Shown piece after piece: positions 32,657 to 47,729 of a stretch of 64,000 nucleotides of DNA (position 1 is the first letter of the stretch; every line of letters begins with the position of its first letter). The stretch lies in assembly GCA_024672275.1 (NCBI GenBank), contig GCA_024672275.1_4536.1; one strand, given 5' to 3'. The DNA comes from a phage. The position numbers and the translations under genes were made by a program. The notes under the pieces were generated by a model, which worked only from the letters and a program-made list of their open reading frames with translations, was not told the DNA's origin and made no database searches.

Positions 32657-33220
32657 CTAAATAGTTTTACTGTGATCGTGACAGTGTAATAAATGATGTA
32701 TAGACCGTTGAGGATTTGTTTGACCTAATCTGTAAATGTGAAACAGATACATTCCCCGCATCAATCCTAACCTCTTTCCTTTTTCATGTAAAGTGCGAGA
32801 GAAAATTAAGTCGAATTGGATAGATTTTTCTTCAAAAGGAATTTCATTCCACAATGATTTTCTAAAAAGCAAAAAGAAACCTGCCAAAGGTGTTCCGAAA
32901 GGAACTTCTTCAACACTCACTTTATGATATTCTCTTGCAATCTTAGCATATTCTATATGGTTTAGAATATCTGGATCATCGTTAATTTGGTTAGAGAAAA
33001 GCTGATAACCACTGCCTAACCTGTTACAAGTTGCACCTATTACATCAAAAGGCGGGTTTGACATAACAAGCTCTTCAAGCATAGATGGTTGATCAGGTAG
33101 GAGGAACATTGTATCGGTATCTCTTAAACACACCCAACTATCATCTGGAAGAACGGCAATGGCTTCATTGATAGCCTTGCCGATATTTCCTGTCAGATAG
33201 GGAGTAATATAATAAATCAT
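32657..33220 (-). CDS. glycosyltransferase-like protein (187 aa)
   Basis: Possible DxD (CLRDTDTMF) in an N-terminal Rossmann-like context; weak. Confidence 0.35.
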   Translation of the reverse strand: MIYYITPYLTGNIGKAINEAIAVLPDDSWVCLRDTDTMFLLPDQPSMLEELVMSNPPFDVIGATCNRLGSGYQLFSNQINDDPDILNHIEYAKIAREYHKVSVEEVPFGTPLAGFFLLFRKSLWNEIPFEEKSIQFDLIFSRTLHEKGKRLGLMRGMYLFHIYRLGQTNPQRSIHHLLHCHDHSKTI

Positions 33221-33236
33221 TCTCCCCTCCGTTATA

Positions 33237-33428
33237 TTAACTGTCGGCTACAATCCCGCGTTTAATCATTTCCTGTTGGATTTGGATGACACGATCTCGT
33301 GCTTCCATGTATTCTTTAAAAGATTCTTGAAGATGGTCACGAGCTACGTCTCGTAGCTTAATCAGTTTGTCGTTTGTCACTTCTTGAAGAGAGATTTCGC
33401 CAGTTTCATTGGTCCCAAGCGTTTTCAT
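33237..33428 (-). CDS. small hypothetical protein (63 aa)
   Basis: ORF only. Confidence 0.3.
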   Translation of the reverse strand: MKTLGTNETGEISLQEVTNDKLIKLRDVARDHLQESFKEYMEARDRVIQIQQEMIKRGIVADS

Positions 33429-33636
33429 TTACAACCTCCTTAATAGCTACTGCACAGTTCTTACAAATACATTGACCTTTGTTCTTAGAAATTTCAATGT
33501 AAGGTTCATTTTCGTTTTCTCCGCGTCGTGAGTCGTATATTACTGTATTGAAGCAGACAACGCAAATGTTTTTAATAACGACATATTTTTGCACTTTCTG
33601 TTTAGTGCGAAAATTGACTTCAATGACTTCTCCCAT
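33406..33636 (-). CDS. small zinc-ribbon protein (start adjusted to Met17 of track ORF)
   Basis: CVVC...CICKNC pattern; adjusted ATG overlaps the upstream stop by 1 nt. Confidence 0.35.
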   Translation of the reverse strand: MGEVIEVNFRTKQKVQKYVVIKNICVVCFNTVIYDSRRGENENEPYIEISKNKGQCICKNCAVAIKEVVNENAWDQ

Positions 33637-33920
33637 CAATGAATCTCCCCTAAAATGTTGTTTTGAGACATTACTGCGGAGCATTCTACAGCATCATGAG
33701 TCCTTGCAAAACGCTCCCACAACACAGCATCTACTTTAAGAACCATACAAGGATAAATACTGTCGTTGATCATATCAATGCTATATTTATCTACATCGTT
33801 TTCATCTTCCATAAACAAAGTAGCGTATGCTTCTAAATGCTTACGGGTGTAGTATACATCCTCTTCGGTAAGACCGACAACCAGGTAACTTGCTACAACA
33901 ACAGTATTATCTTCTTGCAT
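33636..33920 (-). CDS. hypothetical protein (start adjusted to Met22 of track ORF)
   Basis: SD AGGGGAG precedes the internal ATG; removes the overlap with the hydrolase gene. Confidence 0.35.
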   Translation of the reverse strand: MQEDNTVVVASYLVVGLTEEDVYYTRKHLEAYATLFMEDENDVDKYSIDMINDSIYPCMVLKVDAVLWERFARTHDAVECSAVMSQNNILGEIH

Positions 33921-33921
33921 T

Positions 33922-34443
33922 TTAACTCCCCTTTGGTAGATAGAAACCATGCACTTTATCTCGATAAACAAGACGCATATCACGTTCCCAGTGTGTCTTT
34001 ATATTCCGTTTCTTGAAATATAGAGCACCTTTAGTAACATCTAAAACAGACCGCAATTCAGGAAAATGTTTCTCTAGATAAAGTAAACGCTCCGCTATTG
34101 CTTTTGCTTCCTGCCACTTATCTTTCTCTGTTACGTTAAAAGTTTTCGCATATGAGAATTGTCCTTTCTGGAACAAGACTCCTCTGACTGTGTTAGGGAA
34201 GTAGGTATCATTTCTTCTGTTGATTACCACATTCCCAACGGCATTCATTCCTTTTTTACCCAGACCGCGACCTTCTGCGTAAATTGCACAAGCTAATAGA
34301 ATTTTATCATTATATTGCTTTGTACATTTGTGAACTACTTTAGCGGTTTTTACGTTTGCAGCTTCGGCTTTCGCCACAACAGGTGTAAATGTAAAAGCAG
34401 TTAAGGATAGTAACGCAACTGTTACAAAGTTTTTTATCAGCAA
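33922..34443 (-). CDS. secreted cell wall hydrolase, SleB/CwlJ (Hydrolase_2)-like (173 aa)
   Basis: N-terminal signal peptide MLIKNFVTVALLSLTAFTFTPVVAKA; Hydrolase_2-like core LLACAIYAEGRGLGKKGMNAVGNVVINR...VLFQKGQFSY. Confidence 0.6.
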   Translation of the reverse strand: MLIKNFVTVALLSLTAFTFTPVVAKAEAANVKTAKVVHKCTKQYNDKILLACAIYAEGRGLGKKGMNAVGNVVINRRNDTYFPNTVRGVLFQKGQFSYAKTFNVTEKDKWQEAKAIAERLLYLEKHFPELRSVLDVTKGALYFKKRNIKTHWERDMRLVYRDKVHGFYLPKGS

Positions 34444-34504
34444 ATTTTGCCTCCTTTTTAAGTTAACGAATTTCTAGTATAACACGATAGAGGCTTTATT
34501 GCAA

Positions 34505-34524
34505 GAGGGGGATTTCTCCCCCTC
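34505..34524 (-). other. stem-loop GAGGGGGA-TTTC-TCCCCCTC between terD and the hydrolase gene
   Basis: Perfect GC palindrome, near-identical to the hairpin at ~15930; no T-tract. Confidence 0.3.
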
Positions 34525-34542
34525 AAAATCATTTGTTAATTA

Positions 34543-35145
34543 TTATGGACATTCATACCATTCTTTTTTACCACCGAAGGCCATCACCACATCACAAATA
34601 TCCAGACCAGCTTTACCTACACCATATGCTTTCAGCTTCCATTCCCCATCTTCACGAACCAAGGAAGCCACGTGGCAGATTGTGTTGCCAGCTACTTCAG
34701 GAGCCAGGAAGTCAAAATCCAGAATTTCCACATTGCGCTCGGAGTCAAAGATTTTAAGCATACCTTCAGAAGCATGACCAAAACGTTTCAGACCTGTATC
34801 ATCATCAATGGTCAGAACAAAGGCAATCTCTTGTGCATCAGGAGAGATTTTAGCCAGAGTAATATCAATCTGCTCCATGCTGCCAGTTCCATCACGAACA
34901 TCGTCACCAGCGAAGGTAGAACGTTCAGGATCAAACTTGTTAGCATAGCAAACCAGGTGACGTGCAGACAGCATTTCAGGATTGCCAGCGGCATTGTGAC
35001 GACAAACCAGTGCACTTACATCCAGATCCAGTTTAGAATCAGATTTCCAAGAGAATTCCAGGCGCAGTTCTTTCAGAGCCGGAGCAACTTTCTTCAGGGA
35101 AATTTTTTCGCTAGAGCCTTTTTTCAGGGAAATTTTATCAGTCAT
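34543..35145 (-). CDS. terD: TerD-domain stress-response protein (200 aa)
   Basis: Whole-length match to the TerD pattern: ISLKKG...ISLKK N-terminus, DLDVSALV, GDDVRDGTG, FVLTIDDD, GEWKLKAYGVGKAGL. Confidence 0.85.
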   Translation of the reverse strand: MTDKISLKKGSSEKISLKKVAPALKELRLEFSWKSDSKLDLDVSALVCRHNAAGNPEMLSARHLVCYANKFDPERSTFAGDDVRDGTGSMEQIDITLAKISPDAQEIAFVLTIDDDTGLKRFGHASEGMLKIFDSERNVEILDFDFLAPEVAGNTICHVASLVREDGEWKLKAYGVGKAGLDICDVVMAFGGKKEWYECP

Positions 35146-35160
35146 CTTTTGTCTCCTCTA

Positions 35161-35430
35161 TTATTTAAGTGTAATACCAGTTACAGTCAATTCTACTTCC
35201 AAAAGCTTAGATGTGTTTTGGATTGATACTAATTGTGCATGATGGTTTAGTTCTACAGCAGAACAATCATTTTCCCCATCATCTACTTTTAAATAAACAA
35301 TGATTTCACTAAGGTCTAAACCATTTTCGTCAAATGCATTTTCATAGACGAAAGTATCTCCTACATCCAAATCTTTAATGGTAAGGCATCGTTTATTTAC
35401 TTTTTGCTCATCAATTTCGAAGTTTAACAC
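35161..35430 (-). CDS. small hypothetical protein, paralog of 36452..36796 (89 aa)
   Basis: Shares F(N/E)I(Q/D)E(E/Q)K...DL..G.TF.Y..A.E..GLD and C-terminal V(E/D)L(T/E)VT(G/N)ITLK with its paralog. Confidence 0.4.
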   Translation of the reverse strand: MLNFEIDEQKVNKRCLTIKDLDVGDTFVYENAFDENGLDLSEIIVYLKVDDGENDCSAVELNHHAQLVSIQNTSKLLEVELTVTGITLK

Positions 35431-35659
35431 TTCTTCCTCCTAATGTTATCTCCGGTTTGTATATACGAAGAATTATAGCATTTTCATTTTCTTTGTCAAC
35501 CCATTCTTCATAATCGGGCCATACATGAATCTCTACTCTACTTACAATATCTTCCATTCGCACAGTCCCAATGAAATACTCTTTGAGACTGCGCATAATG
35601 AAAGCTTCTCTCTCGCGCCAATAATTTTCTATGACTTGAGAGGCAAGCTCGTCGATCAT
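35411..35659 (-). CDS. hypothetical protein (82 aa)
   Basis: ORF coupled between the vWA gene and the small paralog. Confidence 0.35.
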   Translation of the reverse strand: MIDELASQVIENYWREREAFIMRSLKEYFIGTVRMEDIVSRVEIHVWPDYEEWVDKENENAIILRIYKPEITLGGRSVKLRN

Positions 35660-36450
35660 TTTTTAGCACCTACTTTAACAACCCACTCTCCGAACTCTTC
35701 AGATAAGAGTTTGTCATAAAGCTCTGAATCTGTCAAGTCTAAATCTTTAATGCCAATAAAACCAACATTATCATAAGCATTTGCCAGTTCTTTCAGGAAG
35801 CCGAACTTCTCATTACCAACGCCAACCATGAACCAATAAATAGGTTTATTCTTATTCTCTTCGATAAGACGACGAACAGCACTAGGATCACCATTCTCAC
35901 CATCCGTCTGGAAGAATACAACACCAGGGGTAACGTCAGCACCTGGTTCAGATACAGCTACAACCTTTTCACGCTCTACAGATACTGTTTCAGTTTTACC
36001 AAGCAGACGATTAAAGAAGCCTTTCTTTGGAGCCTCTTCTTGTACCACTTGTTTAGTGGTAATATATTTGGTAACAGTGCCAAAATACTCATCGTAGATA
36101 TCTGCCATTACAGGGGCGTAATTTGTTCCACCTCCGATACGAACATTACGCATACATTTACCAACATAGTCATCGTAAACGTCTGCTGTTGCTGGAGTAA
36201 GCTCTTGAGAACTCGTATTGAAGGCCCACATGTCAATTTGTTCATTATCGTCGAACAGCATACCAAAAGGAAGCAGTTTACCTACAAAATCACTCACTAC
36301 CCCACGAGCATATAGACCATGCATACTACCAGAAATATCTAAAGCACATGCTACACGAAGAACAATCTTACCTTCATTCAGGTTCTTATTCTTTTTCAGA
36401 GAGAAAGCAAGGTTTTCTTGACGTTTTTTCAGGCTGATTTTCTCGGACAT
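35656..36450 (-). CDS. von Willebrand factor A (vWA) domain protein, TerY-like (264 aa)
   Basis: MIDAS motif DISGSM, plus GGGTNYAP and FFQTDGENGD elements. Confidence 0.7.
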   Translation of the reverse strand: MSEKISLKKRQENLAFSLKKNKNLNEGKIVLRVACALDISGSMHGLYARGVVSDFVGKLLPFGMLFDDNEQIDMWAFNTSSQELTPATADVYDDYVGKCMRNVRIGGGTNYAPVMADIYDEYFGTVTKYITTKQVVQEEAPKKGFFNRLLGKTETVSVEREKVVAVSEPGADVTPGVVFFQTDGENGDPSAVRRLIEENKNKPIYWFMVGVGNEKFGFLKELANAYDNVGFIGIKDLDLTDSELYDKLLSEEFGEWVVKVGAKK

Positions 36451-36451
36451 A

Positions 36452-36796
36452 TTATTTCTCCTTCTTAAGTGTAATGTTGGTAACTTCTAAATCTACTTCC
36501 ACCATATTTGTATCTGGCGGGATGCAATGAGTATATCCTCGTTGTGCTAGTGATCCATTAATACAGATCGCACTGTTTGTGGAATTTTTAATGAACACCA
36601 AGTTACGGTAGGTATCCAACCCTGCGTCTTCATAGGCATCATAATACATGAATGTGGCCCCTATGCCAAGATCTTCGAAAGCAATAGGTAAATCCTGACA
36701 CTTTTCTTCTTGAATATTGAATCTAAACACGCATACCTCCTCTACCAATTTTGAAGCCCAAATCGTAAGCTTCCTTAGTGATCTTTTGTAACTCAC
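36452..36796 (-). CDS. small hypothetical protein, paralog of 35161..35430 (true start probably downstream of track start)
   Basis: Conserved region aligns with the 89-aa paralog; the track ORF overlaps the upstream gene by ~74 nt. Confidence 0.35.
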   Translation of the reverse strand: MSYKRSLRKLTIWASKLVEEVCVFRFNIQEEKCQDLPIAFEDLGIGATFMYYDAYEDAGLDTYRNLVFIKNSTNSAICINGSLAQRGYTHCIPPDTNMVEVDLEVTNITLKKEK

Positions 36797-37286
36797 TTAT
36801 AGGAAGTGTTACAAGAGGATCATCTTCTTCAATTTCCATCTTGTCATCTTCTGTTTCAATGAGAGTATTATGCACTTTGTGATAAGGGTTGTCAACACGT
36901 TTAAACTTATTCTTTTCTGTGCTGAAAAAACAATCTGGATCTTCTTCACCATCACCCCAACCTTGGTTAGGATCTCCGTCAGATTGTTCTGTAGGGATTT
37001 CACCTGTAAAGTACTCTTCCAGCACCATAGCAATACCGTCCCTTGGATTTGAGGAATGCATTAAATCACAAACCTTACCCCAATCCATAGCCCATTCGAA
37101 CCGTTCACGAACGCCATTTTCATCCTCCTTTCCAGAGAAAACACAACCATAACTATCATAGTTGCCATACATCTCTTCAATAACAACACCGTCCTTCAAA
37201 AGAAAGAGATAACAAGGTGATCCGTCGAAAGAAGTAGAAAGGGCAGCTTTGCCCGATTCCTTACACAAAAAACTAAAACAACCCAT
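36723..37286 (-). CDS. hypothetical acidic protein (187 aa)
   Basis: ORF; D/E-rich; no motif recognised. Confidence 0.4.
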   Translation of the reverse strand: MGCFSFLCKESGKAALSTSFDGSPCYLFLLKDGVVIEEMYGNYDSYGCVFSGKEDENGVRERFEWAMDWGKVCDLMHSSNPRDGIAMVLEEYFTGEIPTEQSDGDPNQGWGDGEEDPDCFFSTEKNKFKRVDNPYHKVHNTLIETEDDKMEIEEDDPLVTLPISELQKITKEAYDLGFKIGRGGMRV

Positions 37287-37684
37287 TACAAACCCTCCTT
37301 CAGATTATCAAGAGCTACAGTGGTTTCACAAAAGTCTCCATACGTTTTATGATGTTCTAGAAAAGCTTCAGGTCCACCCCAATCATTATCTTGTGTATTC
37401 CAGCCATCAATAAAAGCATCTTCAATGATTGTGATCAGTTCCTGTCGAGTCAACGTAATGGTATCAGGTTTCTGCGTAGTTTCCACACGGAACCCTGGTT
37501 CTTCATAAAAACCTTTAGTTACAATGGACTCTAACTCTTCTGCATCACAGAGGAAGTAGCCACAAAGATAACACCAACCGTCATCATCTTTCATTACTTC
37601 ATAAACTTCACCACTTGCTAACTTGATGAAAAGAGTAGGGTCTGTTACTGTAAGTTTTAAAAGAATACCTGTTGGATTATACAT
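37286..37684 (-). CDS. hypothetical protein (132 aa)
   Basis: ORF with ATGA coupling to the downstream gene. Confidence 0.4.
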   Translation of the reverse strand: MYNPTGILLKLTVTDPTLFIKLASGEVYEVMKDDDGWCYLCGYFLCDAEELESIVTKGFYEEPGFRVETTQKPDTITLTRQELITIIEDAFIDGWNTQDNDWGGPEAFLEHHKTYGDFCETTVALDNLKEGL

Positions 37685-37849
37685 CTTCTTCCTCCTCTAA
37701 AATATGGAACCCGTAATTACAATAATCCTGAAAGGTTTCGTGTGCAAGATCTTCTATATCCTCTTGAGACATATCATCTTCAATTTCGATATCCACAACC
37801 TCATTGCATCCACACCAAGCAGTTTCAATATTCACTCGTAATATTTTCA

Positions 37850-38047
37850 TTACTCCTCCTCCTCATTGAAGTCAATATCTGCAAGGAGTTCGAATTTACG
37901 GAAGTTACGACAACCTTCATAAATATAACAATCACGACAAACTGCTAGAACACTTGGGGGATATATGCCTCCCATCGGCGCGAATCGTTTTTCGTCATCA
38001 TAACGGACACCAATGTCCTCATCAATTATATAGATACGGATTCTCAT
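37850..38047 (-). CDS. small hypothetical protein, Cys-containing, acidic C-terminus (65 aa)
   Basis: ORF overlapping the telA-like stop (ATGA). Confidence 0.3.
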   Translation of the reverse strand: MRIRIYIIDEDIGVRYDDEKRFAPMGGIYPPSVLAVCRDCYIYEGCRNFRKFELLADIDFNEEEE

Positions 38048-39156
38048 TTACCAAGCCCTCGTTTCACAGCAGCTACCATCCCGTCTTCCAGAGATTGAAC
38101 TTCGTTAATATAATCAACACGAGCAGCACGGGCTTCCGTATTGATGCGGTTAGTTTCTTCCAACATCTTAACCAAGTTTTCCTGATCGTGACGCAGAGTT
38201 TCAATATCCAACACTTGACGGTTAGCCAGTGCTGCTGCTTCGATCTGATTCTGTGTGGCAAGATCGCTACCCAGTTTAATTGCCAGGTTAAATTCATCAA
38301 GAACGTTATTCTGCGTCTCTGCTGCTTTCATTTGACGTAAGCTCTCGATATACATTGAGAAGTTAGCAGAGTAAGCAGGAATAACATTATTTACTATATT
38401 ACGCGCAGATCGCATTAAGCTTGCAGAAACTTTTTGCATACCTTGTACACGCGGTCCCATTTGGACACACAGTAGGCGCAATGCCTTTAAATCTGCAATA
38501 CGAATCTCCAGAAGATCCAAAGTATCTCGGATCACTTGTCGCTGTTCTACTGCATCTTCTGGAAGAGCAGCCAAAGCTTGTTCTTCTTTTTCATAGGTTG
38601 CTGTTAGAAGCTGCATATCTCGGTTCAAACTTGCAGCATATTGTCCAATAGCTTGATGTAGCTTTTCAAGATATACCAAGGAATCTTCTTCTTTGCGAAT
38701 ATCCATTTGAAGGTTCTTTACCAACTCTTCAATACGGTTATTAACATTATCAAACTCCCCAAACAGGTCTTCTTTCATACCCATAACTTTTTTAATGAGT
38801 TTAGTAATACCCTTGCTTTGTTTAATAGAGTTTGGATCAAGTTGTTTTGCCTGTTTAATCAAAGCTGTGAGTCGTTCACTCATCTGATCGCCTTGATTAC
38901 TACGTTGATGTTTTAACACCTCGGCATTCAAGGAACGCAAGGTTGTTCCTGCCTCTGCCCCAATCTCTTCAATCTCTTGTCGGGTCATAGAAGGCAAAAC
39001 TGGAACTTCTTGCGGTGCCGCTGGTGCATAAACAGGACTGGCATCTAACACGCTTGGAGCGAATACAGATTTACTTGCATCTGTTGTTGCAGCGAATACA
39101 CTCATTTCAGACTTCTTCTGACCACCAGTAGCTGCTTTTAAAAATGGACTTGTCAT
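38044..39156 (-). CDS. TelA-like (toxic anion resistance / KlaA family) protein (370 aa)
   Basis: Size and long helical, charged composition consistent with TelA; co-localised with TerD/TerC/vWA; no sharp motif, so the call leans on context. Confidence 0.5.
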   Translation of the reverse strand: MTSPFLKAATGGQKKSEMSVFAATTDASKSVFAPSVLDASPVYAPAAPQEVPVLPSMTRQEIEEIGAEAGTTLRSLNAEVLKHQRSNQGDQMSERLTALIKQAKQLDPNSIKQSKGITKLIKKVMGMKEDLFGEFDNVNNRIEELVKNLQMDIRKEEDSLVYLEKLHQAIGQYAASLNRDMQLLTATYEKEEQALAALPEDAVEQRQVIRDTLDLLEIRIADLKALRLLCVQMGPRVQGMQKVSASLMRSARNIVNNVIPAYSANFSMYIESLRQMKAAETQNNVLDEFNLAIKLGSDLATQNQIEAAALANRQVLDIETLRHDQENLVKMLEETNRINTEARAARVDYINEVQSLEDGMVAAVKRGLGK

Positions 39157-39743
39157 TCTTCATTCTCCTCTTCTGCATCTCTTATATATGGTGAAACACC
39201 GTACTCTTTAGCTACTTTAACCCAATCATCCCATTTATACAACCATAATTTTCCTTCAGTTCCTTCTTTATCTGATTTCAACCACATGTTAGGTTGCTTG
39301 CCTGGGTACATGCGATTAGGTTTACGATTATAACCTCTAACACATCTTGTCGCAAACCTATCTACCAGAACAAGAACATATTTATATTCGTGGTTCAACG
39401 GCTCTTTGGAAGTGGCTTTAGGATTAGCCCCTAACTCTGCTGCCAGTTTTTGCCAATGAGCACCGTGTCTACTAAACTTACCCATACAACCATCAATAGC
39501 ATGAGCAATTTCGTGCTTCATTGTATCCACGATCATGTCTCTTGTGGAGTTCTTATGCAAGTGCCAATTTACAACAACAATTTTATCTCGGTAGTTGCAC
39601 CAACCGAAAGAGTTATTCACTTTGTTTCTAACACAAGCTTTATATCCTGCTTCATGTAACATGTTGTAGTAAACAGGAAAATCTTCTTTTATTTCCTGCA
39701 TCACTTCCCACCACAAGAGTTGCAAGTCTCTCTCGGTATGCAT
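39153..39743 (-). CDS. SprT-like zinc metalloprotease domain protein (196 aa)
   Basis: HExxH in KHEIAHAIDGCMGKFSRHGAHW. Confidence 0.5.
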   Translation of the reverse strand: MHTERDLQLLWWEVMQEIKEDFPVYYNMLHEAGYKACVRNKVNNSFGWCNYRDKIVVVNWHLHKNSTRDMIVDTMKHEIAHAIDGCMGKFSRHGAHWQKLAAELGANPKATSKEPLNHEYKYVLVLVDRFATRCVRGYNRKPNRMYPGKQPNMWLKSDKEGTEGKLWLYKWDDWVKVAKEYGVSPYIRDAEEENEE

Positions 39744-39746
39744 AAC

Positions 39747-40340
39747 TTACACCTTAAAAGCGAAATGCGTGGTCGTGGCTTCAAAATCAGGGCCAGATAA
39801 ACTTGCACTGAAATCTGAAATATTTGTAATTAAAAAGCTTTTATGCATACCTAACACAGCCACGCTTTCAATATCTTCTACTAACATTTCAATCATGTTA
39901 GAAACATGGCTGAACGTATAGTTTTGTTTTTTGATGGTGTAGAAAGAAAGACTCCCACCTGCTGTATAAGATACCTCTTCAAAATCTTTAATCGTATATT
40001 GTGTGCCATCAGTAAAGAAAATGGTAGCTTTATTAGTAGCACGTTTCTTGTTTTTTGGTCCTTTTTTACGTTTACTGCGAGTAGGCAAACCGTTTGGGAA
40101 CACCGTAGCTACAAATTCTTCAGGGGAAACCTCCTTACCGAAATCATAACCGTAAGAAACAGCGTCTATAAACTCGTCGTCTTCATTTTTAAAATAATGA
40201 AAATAGGGCCAATTTGAGAGATTATCAAGCATCTTATGCTCATCCACAGCAGAGAACGTATCTCTCAAAGCACGTGTGATTTGTAAAGCATTAGGCAAAC
40301 TTTTAACACCTGTAATGGAAGTACGAATAGAAATTGTCAT
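39747..40340 (-). CDS. hypothetical protein (197 aa)
   Basis: ORF; no motif recognised. Confidence 0.4.
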   Translation of the reverse strand: MTISIRTSITGVKSLPNALQITRALRDTFSAVDEHKMLDNLSNWPYFHYFKNEDDEFIDAVSYGYDFGKEVSPEEFVATVFPNGLPTRSKRKKGPKNKKRATNKATIFFTDGTQYTIKDFEEVSYTAGGSLSFYTIKKQNYTFSHVSNMIEMLVEDIESVAVLGMHKSFLITNISDFSASLSGPDFEATTTHFAFKV

Positions 40341-40354
40341 TGTTTTTCTCCTTA

Positions 40355-40792
40355 TTAACGTCGCTTGCTACGAGATGAACTCTTTTTACTTAAAGGGCTA
40401 TTGTAAGATTTACGAGTTGTATAGCTACTATTTGTTTTAAAAGTCTGTCTCGGCTTTTCATAAGTTTTTATCTCTTGTTTAGGCTTACCATAAAAATTAG
40501 TTTTCGGTTTAGGTGTATTATAATGCTTATTAATAATCGTTCTGTTATCGTTATAATCCCCACTGCTACGATTACTACCGCCACTCATCATATGCCCTAA
40601 CAACATACCTGTAGCAAACTCACCAACACCGCTACTACTAGAACCGCCACCATTGTTGATAATAGTTGTATCTCCGTCAGATCCTTGTTGAGCGTATTGT
40701 TGAGGAGGTTGTTGGTATTGTGCAGGATTTGTTTCATCCTCGCAAGCTGTTAAAAAGATACAACCAATTAAAATCAGGGCTAGTTTTTTCAT
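40355..40792 (-). CDS. lipoprotein, G/S/N/K-rich (start adjusted to Met26 of track ORF)
   Basis: Signal peptide + lipobox MKKLALILIGCIFLTAC; low-complexity GGGSSSSG region. Confidence 0.5.
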   Translation of the reverse strand: MKKLALILIGCIFLTACEDETNPAQYQQPPQQYAQQGSDGDTTIINNGGGSSSSGVGEFATGMLLGHMMSGGSNRSSGDYNDNRTIINKHYNTPKPKTNFYGKPKQEIKTYEKPRQTFKTNSSYTTRKSYNSPLSKKSSSRSKRR

Positions 40793-40979
40793 ATTTGCTT
40801 TCCTCGTTTTGGCTATTAATACATCTGTGTTTGAAATCTCCAGAGAAGCAATAAAGTTGCTCTCCATCTCGGTATAAACTCACTTTACTGCCGTTGATTA
40901 CGCTTGTCAATACAAAAATTACAACAAACAACCCTATTGCAAAACAGATATTTTCAAACACAACCAACAAGTATTTCAT
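40734..40979 (-). CDS. possible small membrane protein (81 aa)
   Basis: Hydrophobic helix ICFAIGLFVVIFVLTSVI; overlaps the lipoprotein gene start region, so it is uncertain. Confidence 0.25.
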   Translation of the reverse strand: MKYLLVVFENICFAIGLFVVIFVLTSVINGSKVSLYRDGEQLYCFSGDFKHRCINSQNEESKYEKTSPDFNWLYLFNSLRG

Positions 40980-41326
40980 TTTAAAAATACCTCATCATCA
41001 GTTTCATTATCCCAGAAGAACAAATCCCAACCATTCGGATCATTCCATTTGGCTGCTGGAGAAGTCCATATTTGTTCGATATCAATATTCAAAACTTCAC
41101 CGTTTCGTTTTGAAACAGCTTTAGTTAATTCCCAACGAGACACAGGCTCCACTTCCCCTGAACCGCTCCCACAACAAGCTACCACATTAGGAGGCAAATT
41201 AATTGGATCTTTGGTCACAATCATAACGCTTACCCCAGGGTAAACTTTTGAAAGATAATCTAAAACGTAATCCACATCGCCAGATAAATCCCAAATAAGT
41301 TCTTGAATTTCATCAAAATTATTCAT
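40976..41326 (-). CDS. hypothetical protein (116 aa)
   Basis: ORF with SD AGGAGA. Confidence 0.4.
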   Translation of the reverse strand: MNNFDEIQELIWDLSGDVDYVLDYLSKVYPGVSVMIVTKDPINLPPNVVACCGSGSGEVEPVSRWELTKAVSKRNGEVLNIDIEQIWTSPAAKWNDPNGWDLFFWDNETDDEVFLK

Positions 41327-41337
41327 AAGTCTCTCCT

Positions 41338-41362
41338 ATAAAATAGCCTCCCGAAGGAGGCT
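41338..41362 (-). terminator. terminator hairpin AGCCTCC-TTCG-GGAGGCT + AUUUUAU after terC
   Basis: Minus-strand GC stem with 4-nt loop followed by a U-rich tract, immediately before the next RBS. Confidence 0.45.
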
Positions 41363-41368
41363 CATCTA

Positions 41369-42343
41369 TTAAACAGCAGCTTCTTCTTTTTCAGGGAAGA
41401 TAAAGCTTGCAATAACACCAAGAGCTAATGTGCCTAGAACAATCATCAGACTTACGTTAGGGGAAATATCATGCGGGAAGAATGACCACTTGGCATGAAG
41501 TGTTTCACCGAACGGGTGATACATAAGTTTAGCACCAACAAACACCAGAACCACAGCAACAGCTTTCTCTAAGTGAACCAGATATTTCACAGCTACACTT
41601 AACACAAAGAAAAGTGCACGTAAACCAAGAACAGCCATCAGCATTGCAGAATAAACTAGCAGAGGTTCTTGTGTCACACCGATCACAGCCGGAACTGAAT
41701 CAAAAGAGAAGACAATATCTGTAAGCTCAATAACAAACACACAAAGAAGAGCAGGAGTTGCATATTTAATACCATTCTTAATGGTAATGAACTTTTCACC
41801 ATCTAGTGCATTGTGCACAGGCAGAACTTTACCTACTAAACGAACAGCCCAATGCTTAGAGTAATCAATATCCTCTTCTTCGTCACCACCTTTGATGATA
41901 GCCACGGCAGACCAAGCTACAATCAAACCGAACAACACTTGGACCGACCAATGAAGGTTAAACAAAGCGGTCCCTGCTGCAACAAAAATACCTCGGAAGA
42001 CAATGGCTCCTGCAATCCCCCAAAGTAAAATCTTATGTTGGAGATGTGTGCTCTTAATTCCAAAGCTTGCAAAAATTGCCATGAATACCATCAGGTTATC
42101 TACAGAAAGACTCTTTTCCAACACATAGCCACTTAGGAAAAGCGCGGCAAACTCTTTACCATGTTCTACCCAAATGAATGCGTAATATCCTAAAGCTAAA
42201 GCAATCCAAAAAACAGACCAAAGCAAAGCAGATTTAATTCCAATTTCTTTATTCTCTTTATGACCAAAGAAATCGATACCAATAGACAATGCCAAAATAC
42301 TAACTAAAACAACTACATCAATAATTGGGAAACCGAGTTGCAT
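41369..42343 (-). CDS. terC: TerC-family integral membrane protein (324 aa)
   Basis: Multiple TM helices; TerC signature LEKSLSVDNLMVFMAIF and FSFDSVPAVIG. Confidence 0.8.
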   Translation of the reverse strand: MQLGFPIIDVVVLVSILALSIGIDFFGHKENKEIGIKSALLWSVFWIALALGYYAFIWVEHGKEFAALFLSGYVLEKSLSVDNLMVFMAIFASFGIKSTHLQHKILLWGIAGAIVFRGIFVAAGTALFNLHWSVQVLFGLIVAWSAVAIIKGGDEEEDIDYSKHWAVRLVGKVLPVHNALDGEKFITIKNGIKYATPALLCVFVIELTDIVFSFDSVPAVIGVTQEPLLVYSAMLMAVLGLRALFFVLSVAVKYLVHLEKAVAVVLVFVGAKLMYHPFGETLHAKWSFFPHDISPNVSLMIVLGTLALGVIASFIFPEKEEAAV

Positions 42344-42422
42344 TCTTTTCTCCTCTCTTTGCGGGGAATTATTCCCCGCTTTATGTGATATATCTTACTC
42401 TTTTTAAGAACTATGTCAACAC

Positions 42423-42644
42423 TTATTTTGTTGAATGAGAGGAAAAGATTCCTCGTAATACCGCCAGAATAAACGAAACACAAACCACGGTCCAGAAGGT
42501 TACTGGGACAGTGATATCTGCATGACCCATAACTTCAGCAACATAGTTGTAAGCCAGCAACAGTAACCAAGCTGGAATCAAACTAAGCATAAAAGCAATA
42601 ACAAAAAAGCTTACCACCGCAACAATACCTGCAAAAACACCCAT
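42423..42644 (-). CDS. small membrane protein, 2 TM (73 aa)
   Basis: Two hydrophobic helices. Confidence 0.4.
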   Translation of the reverse strand: MGVFAGIVAVVSFFVIAFMLSLIPAWLLLLAYNYVAEVMGHADITVPVTFWTVVCVSFILAVLRGIFSSHSTK

Positions 42645-42656
42645 ACTAATCTCCTC

Positions 42657-43130
42657 TTAAAGTTTATAAATAGTCACATCGTGACCTGTTTTTACTAAAG
42701 TTTCTTCAATCATCACTTGGATGATAGCCCAATTACCTCCAGCATATCCAGCGCCAATCATAGGTAAGCCGATCTTACATTTTTGGTCACGGAGAAGCAA
42801 ATCGTTAGCCATAGCTATTAGTGCATCGTAAAGTGCATCATAGTCCAACTGACGACCTTTAGCATTATATCCGTAACGGTATTGCCCGTATAGATTATAT
42901 ACCAAAGGGTCTGATTGTTCGTCTGGCACCCCTAAACTAAAAGAACCTAACTTACTTTGATCACCAGCCATTGTGTCTAAATCTGCCGCATATGCATAAG
43001 GGAATGCTCGTTTAATTTGCGGAGCAATTCCTGCTCCCATATTACACATACAATTGCAACAATGAGCAATAACAGTTACTTCACCTGCTTTAGCGGCATC
43101 AATAAGATTACCTGTTTTCATTTTAAGCAT
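42657..43130 (-). CDS. macro domain protein (start adjusted to Met23 of track ORF)
   Basis: VIAHCCNCMCNMGAGIA...IGLPMIGAGYAGG fits the macro fold; SD AAGGAG before the adjusted ATG. Confidence 0.6.
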   Translation of the reverse strand: MLKMKTGNLIDAAKAGEVTVIAHCCNCMCNMGAGIAPQIKRAFPYAYAADLDTMAGDQSKLGSFSLGVPDEQSDPLVYNLYGQYRYGYNAKGRQLDYDALYDALIAMANDLLLRDQKCKIGLPMIGAGYAGGNWAIIQVMIEETLVKTGHDVTIYKL

Positions 43131-43143
43131 TTTTAGCTCCTTA

Positions 43144-43971
43144 TTACAGAATGTGTTGTTTTGTGTAACGATCCAAGAATTCAAAGTTTTCAACATACTT
43201 TGAAATTCGGTTGTAACCTTCTCCCAAACATCCGAAGAAAAGTTGCTCTACATAGTAGTGTGGCAATTGGCTAAGAATGATTTTGAAGTCTTCATGATTT
43301 TGGCCCATAAGATACTTAATAGGACGAACAAGACACTGTGCATCACGTTCTTCATTAATCATTTTAACAAACGCTTCTGGTGTATTAATGTAGTTAAAAT
43401 TCAGTTTAGCTTCGGTATCTGCTTGATTACCTTCATATTTTGCAAAATACAAGAAGTAAACATCATTTTTAACTTGATTTTCATCAAGGATCTCAATCAG
43501 TTTGTCTTCATGAGTTCCAGTGATATTTACATCATCAATAAACACAAGCTTCTTATCACCCCAGAATTCTTTGTTGCAGTAGAATGTATCCCCATCAATA
43601 AGTTTCTTACGACTAGCTTTATCCAAGAAACCATAATCGTTGATATAGCTAACTTTACGATGAATAATATCTAGTTCTGCTGAACAACCTTGATCATATT
43701 GTGATTGCAACATATTAAAGTAATTAATAAAATGATCTGTCATCATTGTTGCAGCATTATGCACATGGTTGTAAGGAGAAGGAATGATAACAAATTGTTC
43801 CCCAATATGTTTCATTGCCACTTGAGCAAAAAACTGAAGTGCCAATTCTTTACCCATACGACGCGCAGCCTGGTTACTACCAAATTTCAATTTTGAATAG
43901 TCTTTGATATCAAAAGTAGCAGTTTCCAGGTCATCAAATTTATTTGCAAAAATTTGAGTTTGATTACGCAT
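43144..43971 (-). CDS. phosphoribosyltransferase (type I PRTase)-like protein (275 aa)
   Basis: PRPP-binding motif KKLVFIDDVNITGTHEDK. Confidence 0.5.
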   Translation of the reverse strand: MRNQTQIFANKFDDLETATFDIKDYSKLKFGSNQAARRMGKELALQFFAQVAMKHIGEQFVIIPSPYNHVHNAATMMTDHFINYFNMLQSQYDQGCSAELDIIHRKVSYINDYGFLDKASRKKLIDGDTFYCNKEFWGDKKLVFIDDVNITGTHEDKLIEILDENQVKNDVYFLYFAKYEGNQADTEAKLNFNYINTPEAFVKMINEERDAQCLVRPIKYLMGQNHEDFKIILSQLPHYYVEQLFFGCLGEGYNRISKYVENFEFLDRYTKQHIL

Positions 43972-44620
43972 TTACAATTTCTCCTCTTTTAAGTTTCTCT
44001 AGTAAGTCGTTAGGGTTCTTAATATGACAGAAGTTAAATCCTAAGTCAACACATTTTCCATCATATTCTTCACTATCGCCTACGTGCAACACTTCGTGCC
44101 CTAACAGAGGGATCGGAGAATACGTGAGCGTGCGAGCAAAGAATCGCGGATCTGGTTTACAAAGTAAAGCTTCATCCGAAAAATGGGTGAACTCAAAACA
44201 ATTCCAACTATCAAACTTACAAGCACGACGCAGGATATCCCCTGATATGAAGTTGGTGTTACTCTTAATACTCAAATCATAACGCCCCGAAAGATACAGC
44301 AAGTACATCGGCAGATCTACGGCTACGTGTGGTGGAAACTTAAGGAACCACTGTTCACACTCGAAACGAAGCTTTGCAGACTTCCAAGGCGTTATCCCAA
44401 GTTCAGAACCAAGTCTTTCCCAGGCGTATGCTGCACACTCGGCTCGGCCTTGAAGTGCTGCATTATCCAGTTCCTTTTTGATCTTTTTATAAGCTACTCT
44501 TGCTTCCACTTCCGTAATATCTCCATATTTTGCGATAGTCCAGGCTCGCATGTCTGCGTAATTGGAGTTTGCTGTGATCAGTGTGTTCCATACATCAAAA
44601 GAGATATGTTTAATAGTCAT
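43964..44620 (-). CDS. HAD-superfamily hydrolase-like protein (218 aa)
   Basis: Motif I-like ISFDVWNTL, motif IV-like LHVGDSEEYD. Confidence 0.5.
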   Translation of the reverse strand: MTIKHISFDVWNTLITANSNYADMRAWTIAKYGDITEVEARVAYKKIKKELDNAALQGRAECAAYAWERLGSELGITPWKSAKLRFECEQWFLKFPPHVAVDLPMYLLYLSGRYDLSIKSNTNFISGDILRRACKFDSWNCFEFTHFSDEALLCKPDPRFFARTLTYSPIPLLGHEVLHVGDSEEYDGKCVDLGFNFCHIKNPNDLLEKLKRGEIVNA

Positions 44621-44621
44621 A

Positions 44622-45227
44622 TTAAGCCCACCATGCGTCTAAGTTAAGATTACTGTCCACTACCACTTGTTCTATGTGGTAGCCTTTTATCTGTATCCCA
44701 CTGTTCAAGAGCATCTCATACGCTTCATTGAAACGCAACTTATCTTCTGCGGAATATAAGCGAGCATTATAAAATCGGTAATCAATTTCTTCAGCATTAG
44801 AAGAAATACGGAAGAAGTTTGTTTCTACTTCGGGGTCACTTGCTGAAGTCTTAATGTGAACTTCTCCATAATTTTCTTTACTTAGATCCATGAAAAGAAC
44901 ACAGGCAACATGTTTAAACATTCGTTCCAGTTTGTAACGAACAACATTGAAACCTGCATTCTCAAGTTTTTCTACACACTGCAACATTAAAGTAGTGTCG
45001 AGATCGCTTTGATACTTTGTTAACATACGATCACGTTGAGACTTTGTATCCCGATGTAAATCAATTGTTGTGCATTTGGCACCAATAATCTTAGCTGCTT
45101 TCATCAACTCTTCAGAACTAACGTTAGATAAAGTAAGATGAAAATGAGCTTTCCACACTTTTTTAGCAGGGACACCAAAAGATTTATCCCCACTATTCGG
45201 CATGTTGACTACTACACTATGTTGCAT
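44622..45227 (-). CDS. hypothetical protein (201 aa)
   Basis: ORF; no motif recognised; adjacent to the HAD/PRTase genes. Confidence 0.4.
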   Translation of the reverse strand: MQHSVVVNMPNSGDKSFGVPAKKVWKAHFHLTLSNVSSEELMKAAKIIGAKCTTIDLHRDTKSQRDRMLTKYQSDLDTTLMLQCVEKLENAGFNVVRYKLERMFKHVACVLFMDLSKENYGEVHIKTSASDPEVETNFFRISSNAEEIDYRFYNARLYSAEDKLRFNEAYEMLLNSGIQIKGYHIEQVVVDSNLNLDAWWA

Positions 45228-45242
45228 TACTTATCTCCTCAC

Positions 45243-45467
45243 TTAAAATGGAAGTCTTTGAAGTTCATCTCCTCCGATATCAAGTAATTTAGCAACATCT
45301 CGATCAGAAAGCAACTCTTTTCTTTGTAAAATATCCACAAGGGTTGCAAGAATGTCCTTAACGTCCCGATCACTGTTCTTCAAAAGTTCTCCTGCCGTCC
45401 CTACTCTATCTCCTATAGCAAAATATGTAACCATGAAACCTCCTAAGTTAATCTGATTGCCAACCAC
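45243..45467 (-). CDS. hypothetical protein (74 aa)
   Basis: ORF only. Confidence 0.35.
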   Translation of the reverse strand: MVGNQINLGGFMVTYFAIGDRVGTAGELLKNSDRDVKDILATLVDILQRKELLSDRDVAKLLDIGGDELQRLPF

Positions 45468-45918
45468 TTGCCGTTTTGGTCCATAATCTTTGATTATCTG
45501 ACCCTCTGAAAGGTTTTGTAGTTGGATTGTTTATTTCATACTTTCCGTCTACAATAATGTCAACAAGATTTTTAATATACAAAGGCACTTCCTCAAAAGT
45601 ATACCCTGTATATACCATTATATCTTTGCTTGACCCATAAACGTCTCTAACCTTTTCTATAAGGTTTTTAACATTGTAAATATTCTGTGGATCTAATGGC
45701 TCTCCTCCTAAAATTGTTAAACCTTTTACAAACGGTCTTGACAAATCTTTTAAAACTTGCTCTACATTTTCGTGAGTGAACGGTTTCCCATAAGAATAAG
45801 ACCAGGCTTTTTGGTTAAAACAGCCACGACAACCGTGGCTACAACCACTAACCCAGAGGGAGCACCTAACTCCCTCGCCATTAATAAGATCTACAGGTTC
45901 ATATCCTGCAAAATTCAA
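45448..45918 (-). CDS. nrdG: anaerobic ribonucleoside-triphosphate reductase activating protein (radical SAM) (156 aa)
   Basis: CxxxCxxC cluster CSHGCRGC near the N-terminus; overlaps nrdD. Confidence 0.8.
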   Translation of the reverse strand: MNFAGYEPVDLINGEGVRCSLWVSGCSHGCRGCFNQKAWSYSYGKPFTHENVEQVLKDLSRPFVKGLTILGGEPLDPQNIYNVKNLIEKVRDVYGSSKDIMVYTGYTFEEVPLYIKNLVDIIVDGKYEINNPTTKPFRGSDNQRLWTKTASGWQSD

Positions 45919-47729
45919 AGATGTTTCTCCCTTTGCAAAACTTCCTGCATTTTACCTTTGTTGTAAGGGCGTGAATTAGGGGCAGAAAGATACCCTGACA
46001 CACGTCTAACTACAGAAATAGTTTCTTCTTCATGGTTGCCACAATCAGGACACTCAAACCCTTTAGCCGTTGCCTTAAATTCTCCATGAAAACCACACTT
46101 AAAGCATTGATCCACGGGCTGATTAATACCAAAATAGTGAATATGTTCATAAGCGTAGTCTACTAAAGTCTCCAAAGCTTCTAAGTTATTCTTTAAGTTT
46201 GGTGTTTCGACATAACTTATGTTACCACCATTACTAATCTGTGCAAAACCTGCTTCATAATCCCATTTTTCAAAAGGATTTGTTACCAACCATACAGGTT
46301 GATGAAAAGAGTTAGTAAGATAGTCTCTTTCTACCAAACCTGGATATTTTTCATTTAAAGCTGTTGCAAACTTATAGCACAAGGATTCTGCTGGAGTTCC
46401 ATAGAGACTAAACGCCAGCTTAGATCGTTCTTTAAACACAGCACACACATCTTTCATATGTTGCAGAATGCTTTTACCAAGTTCCTTTTTATCTTTTTCT
46501 TCTGGATAAAGGATTTCCAAAGCTTCAGCAAGACCTACATAACCAATACTAATAGAAGCATAACCATCTTCAAACAAAACACCAATTTCATCGTTGGCAT
46601 TTAAACGCGCTAAAGCCCCTTCCATGAAAAGAATAGGGTTTTCAGATGCTTTGGTATGTTTAATACGGTTTACACGTAACATGTGAGCATCGTAGGCTAT
46701 CTCCATATGTTTATTAAGGAGGTCGGTGAAAGATTCTCCTTTACTTCTCGCTTCCGCAGCAATCAGAGGCAAGTTGATAGAAACTACTCCAAGGTTGAAG
46801 CGTCCATCATATTTTTCTCCTTGTTCGGTGGCATAGTACGACAAAAAGGAACGACAACCCATACTCGTAACAGTGCCATCTGCTGATCCCGTAACTTCTT
46901 TGTTCAAAGGAACAGAAATAAAATCTGGATAAATACGATCAGCACAACATGCCAAAGCTTGTTGCTTAAGGTCATAGTTAGGATCACTAGGTTTCATGTT
47001 AACACCTTCTTGTAAAAAGAAAATAACTTTAGGGAATACAGGCGTTACATGATCTTTGCCTAGACCATTACTATGCACTTTAAGATAATTAGCTGTGATC
47101 ATTCTGCCAAAAACAGAGGTATCCAGACCCATACTGATTGTAATAAAAGGAGATTGTCCATTAACACTCATTAAAGTATTAACCTGATACAAGAGAGTTT
47201 GCATAGCATCATATACATCTTGTTCGGTCATTTCCAGGGCTTCTTTCCTTGCATAACAACCGTAGCGACGTTTGGTTATCTCCATGTTTTTAAGGAAACT
47301 AGCTTCAACATAAGGACTAAGACCTTTATCAATGTGCGCACACGTCTGACCTCCATACTGACTGGAGGCAACAGCTTGGATAATTTGAGTTAGCACTGTG
47401 GTAGCTACTCCAATAGATTTTGGTTTTTCTATCTGTGCAGCACCGATCTTAAAACCATTTTCTAACATATCTTGATAATTAACAAGACAACAGTTTGTAA
47501 GAGGAGAGAGTAGATAATCCAAGTCGTGAATATGTCCAAAACCTTCTGTATGCCATTCTGACAAGTTTTTTGGCAGTATCTGTGTCATTGCCATATGTTT
47601 GCTTAAAATCCCCGCCAAGAGATCCCTGTGCGTGTTAACGAGGTGGGAAGGTTTGTTTGCATTCTCTCTAGTGTATGTTTCTGAAGTGCGATCTAAAAAA
47701 GAAAAAACATCTTGGTACAAATCTTTCAT
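45915..47729 (-). CDS. nrdD: anaerobic (class III) ribonucleoside-triphosphate reductase (604 aa)
   Basis: C-terminal glycine-radical motif RRVSGYL and zinc ribbon CFKCG...CPDCG. Confidence 0.9.
   Translation of the reverse strand: MKDLYQDVFSFLDRTSETYTRENANKPSHLVNTHRDLLAGILSKHMAMTQILPKNLSEWHTEGFGHIHDLDYLLSPLTNCCLVNYQDMLENGFKIGAAQIEKPKSIGVATTVLTQIIQAVASSQYGGQTCAHIDKGLSPYVEASFLKNMEITKRRYGCYARKEALEMTEQDVYDAMQTLLYQVNTLMSVNGQSPFITISMGLDTSVFGRMITANYLKVHSNGLGKDHVTPVFPKVIFFLQEGVNMKPSDPNYDLKQQALACCADRIYPDFISVPLNKEVTGSADGTVTSMGCRSFLSYYATEQGEKYDGRFNLGVVSINLPLIAAEARSKGESFTDLLNKHMEIAYDAHMLRVNRIKHTKASENPILFMEGALARLNANDEIGVLFEDGYASISIGYVGLAEALEILYPEEKDKKELGKSILQHMKDVCAVFKERSKLAFSLYGTPAESLCYKFATALNEKYPGLVERDYLTNSFHQPVWLVTNPFEKWDYEAGFAQISNGGNISYVETPNLKNNLEALETLVDYAYEHIHYFGINQPVDQCFKCGFHGEFKATAKGFECPDCGNHEEETISVVRRVSGYLSAPNSRPYNKGKMQEVLQREKHL

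Follow-up and report, generated by a model that had tools for sequence, protein, structure and literature searches.

A compact Ter-type gene block with a HAD-PRTase_3 pair in a Phapecoctavirus, a probable Stephanstirmvirinae version of the phage-borne Ter system

The 64,000-nucleotide stretch of phage DNA analyzed here (the window; contig GCA_024672275.1_4536.1 of GenBank assembly GCA_024672275.1) carries, at positions 34543 to 45227 and entirely on the minus strand, a block of genes that a first-pass annotation had read as a phage-borne Ter-like cluster, and every gene named in that annotation lies where it had been placed. Over 10.7 kb the sequence is 97 to 99% identical to Escherichia phages anhysbys, phAPEC8, ESCO5, and some 60 further members of the genus Phapecoctavirus (Stephanstirmvirinae), to which the window belongs. 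The phage is a virulent myovirus; no lysogeny functions were seen in the annotation of the near-identical phage EF1-1, of which 1 to 100 kb and 110.8 to 133.3 kb (123 kb) were covered. In the direction of transcription, the block is preceded by nrdD and nrdG (47729-45448) and followed by a gene for a SleB-type endolysin (34443-33922) and then by four glycosyltransferase genes. Its position beside nrdDG (45448-47729) had been noted correctly and taken as a hint of function, but the related Vequintavirus EmilHeitz, which has unrelated genes after nrdD and nrdG and lacks a Ter block, speaks against drawing function from this proximity. The Pfam scan covered 20 open reading frames (ORFs) of the block; an 81-amino-acid (aa) ORF was left out of every library scan. 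Six genes are central to what follows (Pfam scores in bits, against the family cut-off):

34543..35145, minus strand: TerD-domain protein, 200 aa (TerD, 98.9 against 25.3; 3e-28)
35656..36450, minus strand: vWA protein of the TerF type with an intact metal ion-dependent adhesion site (MIDAS), 264 aa (vWA-TerF-like, 130.4 against 29.4; 1e-37)
38044..39156, minus strand: TelA family protein, 370 aa (TelA, 115.7 against 30; 3e-33)
41369..42343, minus strand: integral membrane protein of the TerC/Alx subfamily, 324 aa (TerC, 138.3 against 27.8; 3e-40)
43144..43971, minus strand: PRTase_3, a ComF-like type I phosphoribosyltransferase (PRTase), 275 aa (142.5 against 28.7)
43964..44620, minus strand: 218-aa hydrolase of the HAD superfamily, in every locus compared the immediate upstream neighbor of the PRTase

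The profile searches upheld the TerD, TerC, and TelA assignments of the first-pass annotation, and its TerD, vWA, TelA, SprT-like, TerC, and PRTase proteins all scored well above the Pfam cut-offs. TerD, a beta-sandwich protein, also aligns with the structure of Klebsiella TerD (PDB 2kxt; 1.5e-15). What had been described as a TelA-like helical protein proved to be more than that, a true member of the TelA family, which is present in 223 phage records and has homologues in the Psa group of Pseudomonas syringae phages; no sequence relative of TelA was found in the PDB. The vWA protein does have the MIDAS that was ascribed to it, and its residues DxSGS, GGT, and TDG do not vary among the 15 loci with a vWA gene, but the protein is of the TerF type and not TerY-like as had been suggested. 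As for the TerY-P triad (vWA, PP2C phosphatase, and kinase), the vWA protein had no PADLOC match, and no kinase or PP2C domain was matched in the block (Pfam, 20 ORFs). TerF itself carries a TerD domain at its N terminus, and the phage vWA protein has no TerD-domain match in Pfam. TerC passes the cut-off for the Alx subfamily (NCBIfam TIGR03718, 319.6 against 246.4 bits) and is 34% identical over 275 residues to Escherichia coli Alx, an annotated Mn2+ exporter. Recent capture of host alx as the source of terC was considered and rejected, given this low protein identity and the lack of any DNA match in E. coli.

The PRTase has the type I fold, and its phosphoribosyl pyrophosphate (PRPP)-binding loop is invariant in the loci compared. 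Several relatives are labeled orotate phosphoribosyltransferase in databases, a name that we rejected, finding no specific similarity to that enzyme over other PRTases. The HAD protein scores below its Pfam cut-off (20.7 against 26.4), but its earlier identification is supported by matches to NCBIfam HAD models of the REG-2/YjjG type and to PDB 2om6, with which it has the motif FDVWNTL in common. Motif I reads S[FL]D[VF]W[NG]T in all 23 loci (SFDVWNT here), so that the nucleophilic Asp is kept, and the Lys of motif III and the GDxxxD of motif IV are retained as well.

We compared 25 proteins of the window with these 23 loci, a set made up of annotated phages together with contigs from IMG/VR and from metagenomes. 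Gene order is preserved throughout in Justusliebigvirus phi92 and its IMG/VR relatives, whose proteins are 49 to 81% identical to those of the window (in phi92, TerD 81%, TelA 79%, TerC 70%, vWA 67%, PRTase 65%, and HAD 49%). The order of this type runs from HAD, PRTase, a macro-domain protein, a 73-aa protein with transmembrane (TM) helices, TerC, an 81-aa TM protein, a lipoprotein, a p197-like protein, and TelA to p132, p187, p91, vWA, TerD, and the endolysin; the 201-aa protein (p201) and the SprT-like protease of the window are missing from it, and several small ORFs vary among relatives. Outside Stephanstirmvirinae, 13 distinct loci encode a PRTase 41 to 50% identical to that of the window, and in seven of them two to five Ter proteins are encoded within 10 kb of the HAD-PRTase pair, mostly contiguously and in varying order (TerC-vWA-TerD-TerD-TelA-HAD-PRTase in locus L021; TerC-TerD-vWA-HAD-PRTase in L022 and L006). 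Helical proteins of 402 and 389 aa in L006 and L007 were examined as possible TelA counterparts; they had no Pfam match and an hhalign probability of 0.2% from shallow alignments. The six distant loci without Ter genes are among Xanthomonas phage XaC1, Rhizobium phage TM30, L008, L014, L016/L017, L020, and L023. With or without Ter genes, HAD adjoins PRTase_3 on its upstream side in 23 of 23 loci.

TerD-like genes occur in only about 0.3% of phage records (146/50,697), yet five Ter-associated families are packed into 11 kb here and recur together elsewhere; the linkage of Ter genes with the HAD-PRTase pair is therefore far beyond chance. Set against the frequency of TerD, seven loci out of 13 would arise by chance with a probability of about 1e-14 by a crude binomial estimate, or below 1e-7 were TerD 10 times commoner, the loci being possibly not fully independent. 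As judged from the comparison of loci, the recurrent core is TerC, TerD, vWA, and often TelA, together with an inseparable HAD-PRTase_3 pair. The macro-domain protein, the SprT-like protease, and p201 are not part of the distant core clusters and, with several small ORFs, are evidently lineage-specific passengers in an accessory slot between nrdDG and the endolysin gene, while the small membrane proteins around the core (73 aa, 81 aa, and the lipoprotein) are conserved within the subfamily. The linkage of the genes in relatives, on which the earlier reading depended, is thus borne out by the full order in phi92 and the core in distant phage contigs, but the picture of a single unit of seven functions is not, as macro, SprT, and p201 fall outside the core.

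The cluster was also correctly described as reduced. No TerB match was found among the 20 ORFs (Pfam) or in the part of EF1-1 covered by annotation, and the same searches yielded no ATP-grasp protein and no second PRTase; paralogues corresponding to TerZ, TerA, and TerE of the resistance operon are likewise absent, a single ORF of the 20 having a TerD domain (Pfam). Overall, it is very probable that the block is the Stephanstirmvirinae version of the phage-borne Ter system, with a core of five or six parts.

Anantharaman, Iyer, and Aravind reportedly described in 2012 bacterial Ter neighborhoods that combine TerD, TerC, TelA, and vWA proteins with a PRTase and a HAD protein, predicted to make a nucleoside-like metabolite, and the Pfam families PRTase_3 and vWA-TerF-like are said to have been defined from them. 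Like these neighborhoods, the block combines TerD, TerC, TelA, and a MIDAS-bearing vWA protein with PRTase and HAD; unlike them, it lacks an ATP-grasp protein, a second or third PRTase, a C-C bond lyase, TerB, and the kinase/phosphatase pair. With terZABCDEF (IncHI2 plasmid R478; E. coli O157 SpLE1) it has the TerC, TerD, and TerF-type vWA domains in common, but it differs in having one TerD-domain gene, no TerB, a degenerate Ca2+ motif, and terC and terD in separate predicted units, and its PRTase has no relative on enterobacterial plasmids. A PRTase relative on the classical enterobacterial ter plasmids was in fact sought and not found; the only plasmids matched were of the Rhizobium type. 

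Among phages, Iyer, Anantharaman, Krishnan, Burroughs, and Aravind described in 2021 Ter systems with PRTase and HAD, proposed to be used against superinfecting phages, with Acinetobacter phage vB_AbaM_ME3, Caulobacter jumbo phages, and "certain smaller tailed phages" as examples (PMC7824862). The present block resembles these systems in TerD, TerC, the TerF-type vWA protein, TelA, the PRTase and HAD "signal biosynthesis" pair, and its lytic carrier, and the inferred role against superinfection would be common to both (PMC7824862). It differs from the jumbo-phage systems in lying in a 150-kb coliphage, in having a single PRTase (PRTase_3), and in lacking TerB; ME3 was not among the tblastn matches of PRTase_3, so its PRTases probably belong to another family. 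Virulent Klebsiella phage phiKp34 carries a cluster of terC, terF-vWA, terD, and telA (PMC8386662), a subset reported earlier from other virulent phages, according to a citation in that paper. The block shares this clustering with phiKp34 and the phiPsa374-group phages (PMC8386662), but for phiKp34 and the Psa group no HAD-PRTase pair has been reported, neither was among the PRTase matches listed, and phiKp34 has two TerD genes where there is one here. Highly transcribed terD operons have also been reported from gut jumbo phages (PMC12880540). We found no published analysis of the Stephanstirmvirinae block and no relevant literature on TerD or tellurite in phAPEC8 or Phapecoctavirus or on PF15610, and the phAPEC8 record names only TerC among the Ter genes. 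The role of such a cluster in a virulent phage had been called essentially uncharacterized, which holds for experiments but not for the literature, since phage Ter systems and a superinfection role have been published (PMC7824862, PMC8386662). Phage Ter systems with PRTase and HAD are thus already known, and what is new here is a sharper parts list.

The following predicted transcription signals accompany the core genes:

34505..34524, minus strand: GC-rich hairpin 3' of terD, GAGGGGGA-GAAA-TCCCCCTC, terminator-like with a weak U tract
35472..35499, minus strand: promoter of p89-terD (p89 being the 89-aa protein encoded directly upstream of TerD), a perfect sigma-70 consensus, TTGACA-16-TATAAT with TG
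41345..41362, minus strand: intrinsic terminator after terC, AGCCTCC-TTCG-GGAGGCT plus U tract, annotated as a terminator in phage ASO2A
42379-42361, minus strand: perfect 19-nucleotide hairpin in the terC 5' untranslated region (UTR), GCGGGGAATAATTCCCCGC, between the terC promoter and the ribosome-binding site
42419-42392, minus strand: terC promoter, sigma-70 type, TTGACA-16-TAAGAT

The site of the hairpin after terD is annotated as a rho-independent terminator in ASO2A. The p89-terD promoter recurs as an identical site in L012, and L002 and L010, which lack p89, have TTGACT-16-TAAAAT or TAGAAT directly upstream of TerD. In each of the five Stephanstirmvirinae loci the terC promoter precedes the gene by 76 to 84 nucleotides, and the phAPEC8 annotation lists it as host-dependent. 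Because the hairpin at 42361-42379 is located between this promoter and the ribosome-binding site, it would belong to the 5' UTR and not be a terminator of the upstream genes. Bacterial alx is riboswitch-controlled. A Mn2+ riboswitch (yybP-ykoY) ahead of the Alx-like terC was looked for and rejected, as no Rfam family matched 33000-49000 at E<=1; the phage gene differs from alx in having a simple 5'-UTR hairpin in place of the riboswitch. The predicted promoters and hairpins split the block into several transcription units, and they suggest that terC and terD are expressed early by the host polymerase, separately from the flanking genes.

These parts can be joined in a mechanism, which, taken whole, we put forward tentatively, with the odds somewhat against it. 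Soon after infection, the separate sigma-70 promoters of terC and terD would be used by host RNA polymerase. TerC, as an Alx-type inner-membrane transporter, would shift the flux of divalent cations (of the Mn2+ type) across the inner membrane, and TelA, vWA, and TerD would form an assembly on the underside of the membrane, held by contacts that depend on metal (MIDAS). The PRTase would couple a base to PRPP, and HAD would convert the product into a nucleoside-like ligand by which the complex is tuned. The envelope would in this way stay energized and would withstand superinfecting phages, toxins that form pores, and abortive-infection effectors aimed at the membrane, an outcome that would parallel the phage inhibition and colicin resistance ascribed to plasmid ter operons (as cited in PMC8386662; PMC8193136). 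The functional residues on which such a scheme would draw are retained in the MIDAS, in the PRPP loop, and, for HAD, in the nucleophile and in motifs III and IV. Striking a balance between the firmer identity and the more tentative mechanism, we hold the explanation as a whole at about even odds.

Several observations weigh against this joint reading. The mechanism is built on homology and on hypotheses for bacterial Ter systems, whose function is itself unsettled. The promoters are consensus matches, and promoter-like sites in the region number 49 against a shuffled expectation of 40.3, so that the weight of the predicted promoters comes from their conserved position. In TerD the Ca2+ motif GDNxTGxGDGDDE, canonical in L018, L022, and L006, has degenerated to AGDDVRDGTGSMEQ here and across Stephanstirmvirinae, and because three of its Asp residues are lost, metal sensing by TerD in this lineage appears doubtful. 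The general acid of HAD at Asp+2 is replaced by Trp or Tyr in all 23 loci; with this substitution in every locus, an ordinary phosphatase mechanism cannot be assumed, and motif I argues for nonstandard chemistry. About half of the distant phage loci have the HAD-PRTase pair but no Ter genes, and the pair is found by itself on Rhizobium megaplasmids (e.g., 107669-109142 in L034, Rhizobium johnstonii pRL10). The pair is an autonomous two-gene cassette that can work independently of Ter, which amends the first-pass picture of PRTase and HAD as parts of the Ter cluster. Finally, in jumbo Brevundimonas phages the components lie tens of kilobases apart.

Some of the same observations would fit a mosaic accessory island, in which genes with separate actions would occupy one permissive slot between nrdDG and the endolysin gene, with no integrated Ter complex: TerC might, for example, be a lone transporter of Mn2+ or another cation for phage enzymes, TerD, TelA, and vWA independent stress proteins, and HAD-PRTase a nucleotide salvage pair. 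We consider this improbable, though not negligibly so. In its favor, terC and terD are separate units with their own predicted promoters and terminators; p201, SprT, p89, and two small proteins of 82 and 116 aa (p82 and p116) come and go between genera; HAD-PRTase does occur alone, as TelA does in many jumbo phages (PMC7824862); and TerC of L021 (3043-4017) is 72% identical to TerC of the window (41369-42343) while the PRTase of L021 is only 47% identical, which suggests that terC has been exchanged separately between phage lineages, in line with piecemeal exchange. However, the same five or six families reassemble, in differing orders, in unrelated phage contigs, and the order is kept across genera; since this would be hard to explain otherwise, it argues for co-inheritance under selection.

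The remaining genes of the block are as follows:

35161..35430, minus strand: 89-aa protein (p89), paralogue a of phrog_11278 (PHROG 3e-45), directly upstream of TerD; absent in the phi92 type
35411..35659, minus strand: 82-aa protein (p82), phrog_22387, confined to L001, L005, and L012, which are Phapecoctavirus-like
36452..36730, minus strand: 92-aa protein, paralogue b of phrog_11278 (PHROG 6e-48), directly upstream of vWA; 63% identical in phi92
36723..37286, minus strand: 187-aa protein, phrog_14928, conserved across Stephanstirmvirinae (76% in phi92); no Pfam or NCBIfam match
37286..38047, minus strand: three small ORFs of 132, 57, and 65 aa, variably present in relatives; the 57-aa ORF is a borderline DUF7167 match
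39153..39743, minus strand: SprT-like zinc metalloprotease, 196 aa, a predicted passenger (Pfam 36.4 against 25.6; 5e-9), with the motif HEIAH
39747..40340, minus strand: 197-aa protein, phrog_27550, with a partial 40% match to phi92 gp179
40355..40792, minus strand: lipoprotein, 145 aa, with a signal peptide, the lipobox LTAC, and a low-complexity Lys/Ser-rich tail, as read from the sequence
40734..40979, minus strand: 81-aa protein with one N-terminal TM helix (read from the sequence), overlapping the lipoprotein gene; 49% identical in phi92
40976..41326, minus strand: 116-aa protein (p116), phrog_27498, in L001, L005, and L012 only
42423..42644, minus strand: 73-aa protein with two predicted TM helices (read from the sequence); 60% identical in phi92
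42657..43130, minus strand: 157-aa macro-domain protein, a putative ADP-ribosyl hydrolase of the SCO6735/TARG1/DarG class; Pfam marginal (23.0 against 22)
44622..45227, minus strand: p201, of a virus-enriched uncharacterized domain family, a predicted passenger

The macro-domain assignment, marginal in Pfam, is secured by PHROG 335 (1e-55), by PDB matches (5e3b, 5e-13; TARG1, 2e-6; DarG, 2e-6; BT1257), and by the DarG models of PADLOC (2e-10) and NCBIfam, and in the two alignments displayed the protein shares GxGxAGG with SCO6735 and BT1257. Its gene is next to that of the PRTase in Stephanstirmvirinae only; in the distant loci it is 7 to 8 kb away (L003, L018) or absent. The SprT-like gene is found neither in phi92-type loci nor in any distant locus. 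The lipoprotein, whose signal peptide and lipobox at 40355-40792 confirm the earlier call, is 34 to 36% identical in the phi92 type. It was considered together with the 81-aa TM protein as a spanin pair, a reading that was rejected because the spanins are encoded elsewhere (o-spanin at 62296-62641 in phAPEC8; gp141/142 in EF1-1). A T4-lysozyme-like gene and the actual spanin pair likewise lie elsewhere in the genomes of relatives. The two phrog_11278 paralogues, 31 to 35% identical to each other, may be partner or adaptor proteins.

For p201, no relative was found in Pfam, NCBIfam, or the PDB. An exhaustive profile search returned 260 representative clusters, some of them with NUDIX at the N terminus and one with a SpoT-like HD domain; with a narrower family alignment, a genome scan hit only four loci in metagenome-assembled genomes (MAGs), and in the relatives from bacterial MAGs the domain is fused to NUDIX. 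Across 27 diverse members, 17 positions do not vary, including those of HxHxT, RxKxE, ExHxK, and SxN, and in the predicted model (predicted local distance difference test score of 81), a double ferredoxin-like fold to which no solved structure is close, these motifs sit on strands at alternate positions. Predicted-structure relatives come from Rheinheimera, Aeromonas, Acinetobacter ME3, and Sinorhizobium phages and from giant viruses. As p201 is present in Barbavirus without Ter genes (and missing in phi92), we regard it as a passenger in the block, plausibly a hydrolase or binder of nucleotide derivatives. A reading as a 2H phosphoesterase was rejected because the 2H fold with two HxT/S motifs was not seen. 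A link to AbiE was considered as well and looks doubtful: the PADLOC AbiEi profile matches over the full length (5e-13), but there is no Pfam AbiEi match and no PDB relative, and no AbiEii partner was matched among the block proteins scanned with PADLOC.

These proteins underlie a second alternative, nucleotide-centered anti-defense, in which the products of four consecutive genes, p201, HAD, PRTase, and the macro-domain protein, would rebuild, destroy, or mimic an immune nucleotide-derived molecule (candidate targets being ADP-ribose-type signals, depleted nucleotides, and ADP-ribosylated DNA) and Ter would be secondary. The macro-domain protein is closest to the de-ADP-ribosylases SCO6735, TARG1, and DarG, the p201 domain has the fusions and the AbiEi match just described, and Ter-less pairs lie near genes for RNA ligase, tRNA nucleotidyltransferase, Nudix, and macro proteins in XaC1 and near Rnl1 in L008. 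In L006 (12337-14612) the Ter/HAD-PRTase cluster is followed by genes for a PnuC-type nicotinamide mononucleotide transporter and an AAA_28 (NadR-like) protein, neighbors that hint at a link to pyridine-nucleotide uptake. But outside Stephanstirmvirinae macro and p201 are unlinked to HAD-PRTase, and p201 is not found in phi92; a PADLOC scan of ten main block proteins, PRTase, HAD, TerD, TerC, TelA, and vWA among them, gave meaningful matches only for the macro-domain protein (DarG) and p201 (AbiEi); and the PRTase is equally near purine, pyrimidine, and ComF-type enzymes, so that it points to no particular substrate. On these grounds we think this alternative unlikely, a little more so than the mosaic island.

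Tolerance of tellurite, metals, or xenobiotics as a benefit to the infected or pseudolysogenic host cell is very improbable, even though family names and database labels say "tellurite resistance," xenobiotic tolerance during pseudolysogeny was raised as a side possibility by Iyer et al. (PMC7824862), and TerC is reported to contribute to tellurite and zinc resistance in Klebsiella (PMC12054061), because the phage is a virulent myovirus showing no lysogeny functions in the annotation covered, TerB and TerZ/A/E are absent, and the PRTase is without a relative on enterobacterial ter plasmids; the first-pass view that classical tellurite resistance is an unlikely purpose therefore agrees with ours.

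Some features of the surroundings may be recorded. Just 3' of the block, 31965-34443 on the minus strand holds the gene for the SleB-type cell wall hydrolase and two of the four consecutive glycosyltransferase genes, and the remaining two lie further downstream, below 31965. On the other side, nrdD (45915-47729) is uninterrupted here and split by intervening sequence in phi92 (L002, 6218-8296) and in EmilHeitz (L033, 6117-8824), where the intervening sequence is annotated with a homing endonuclease. Among the records 90 to 99% identical to this coliphage are some deposited under the host names Campylobacter, Acinetobacter, Klebsiella, and Pseudomonas; either these names look questionable or there was carry-over of isolates.

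Recognized decades ago, Ter systems are common in bacteria, plasmids, and pathogens, and their function is still unsettled. The Stephanstirmvirinae block offers a compact version from a lytic phage, comprising six core genes and a two-enzyme module that is obligatory, with clear predicted promoters and terminators, and several of these phages were isolated on E. coli K-12 MG1655, so that it may serve as a tractable model in E. coli K-12. The comparison of loci separates the core from its passengers and shows HAD-PRTase_3 to be a cassette that stands on its own and whose HAD active site is unusual. The analysis also singled out, as a candidate for study, the virus-enriched domain family of p201, linked by fusion to NUDIX and HD nucleotide hydrolases. 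In a bolder reading, which is speculative and improbable, the Trp-bearing HAD and PRTase_3 would be a self-contained maker of a nucleoside-type ligand that gates a submembrane complex of TerD, vWA, TelA, and TerC and so holds the inner membrane energized and closed against abortive-infection effectors and superinfection. If true, this would be a phage-encoded small-molecule signaling circuit that controls host membrane physiology.

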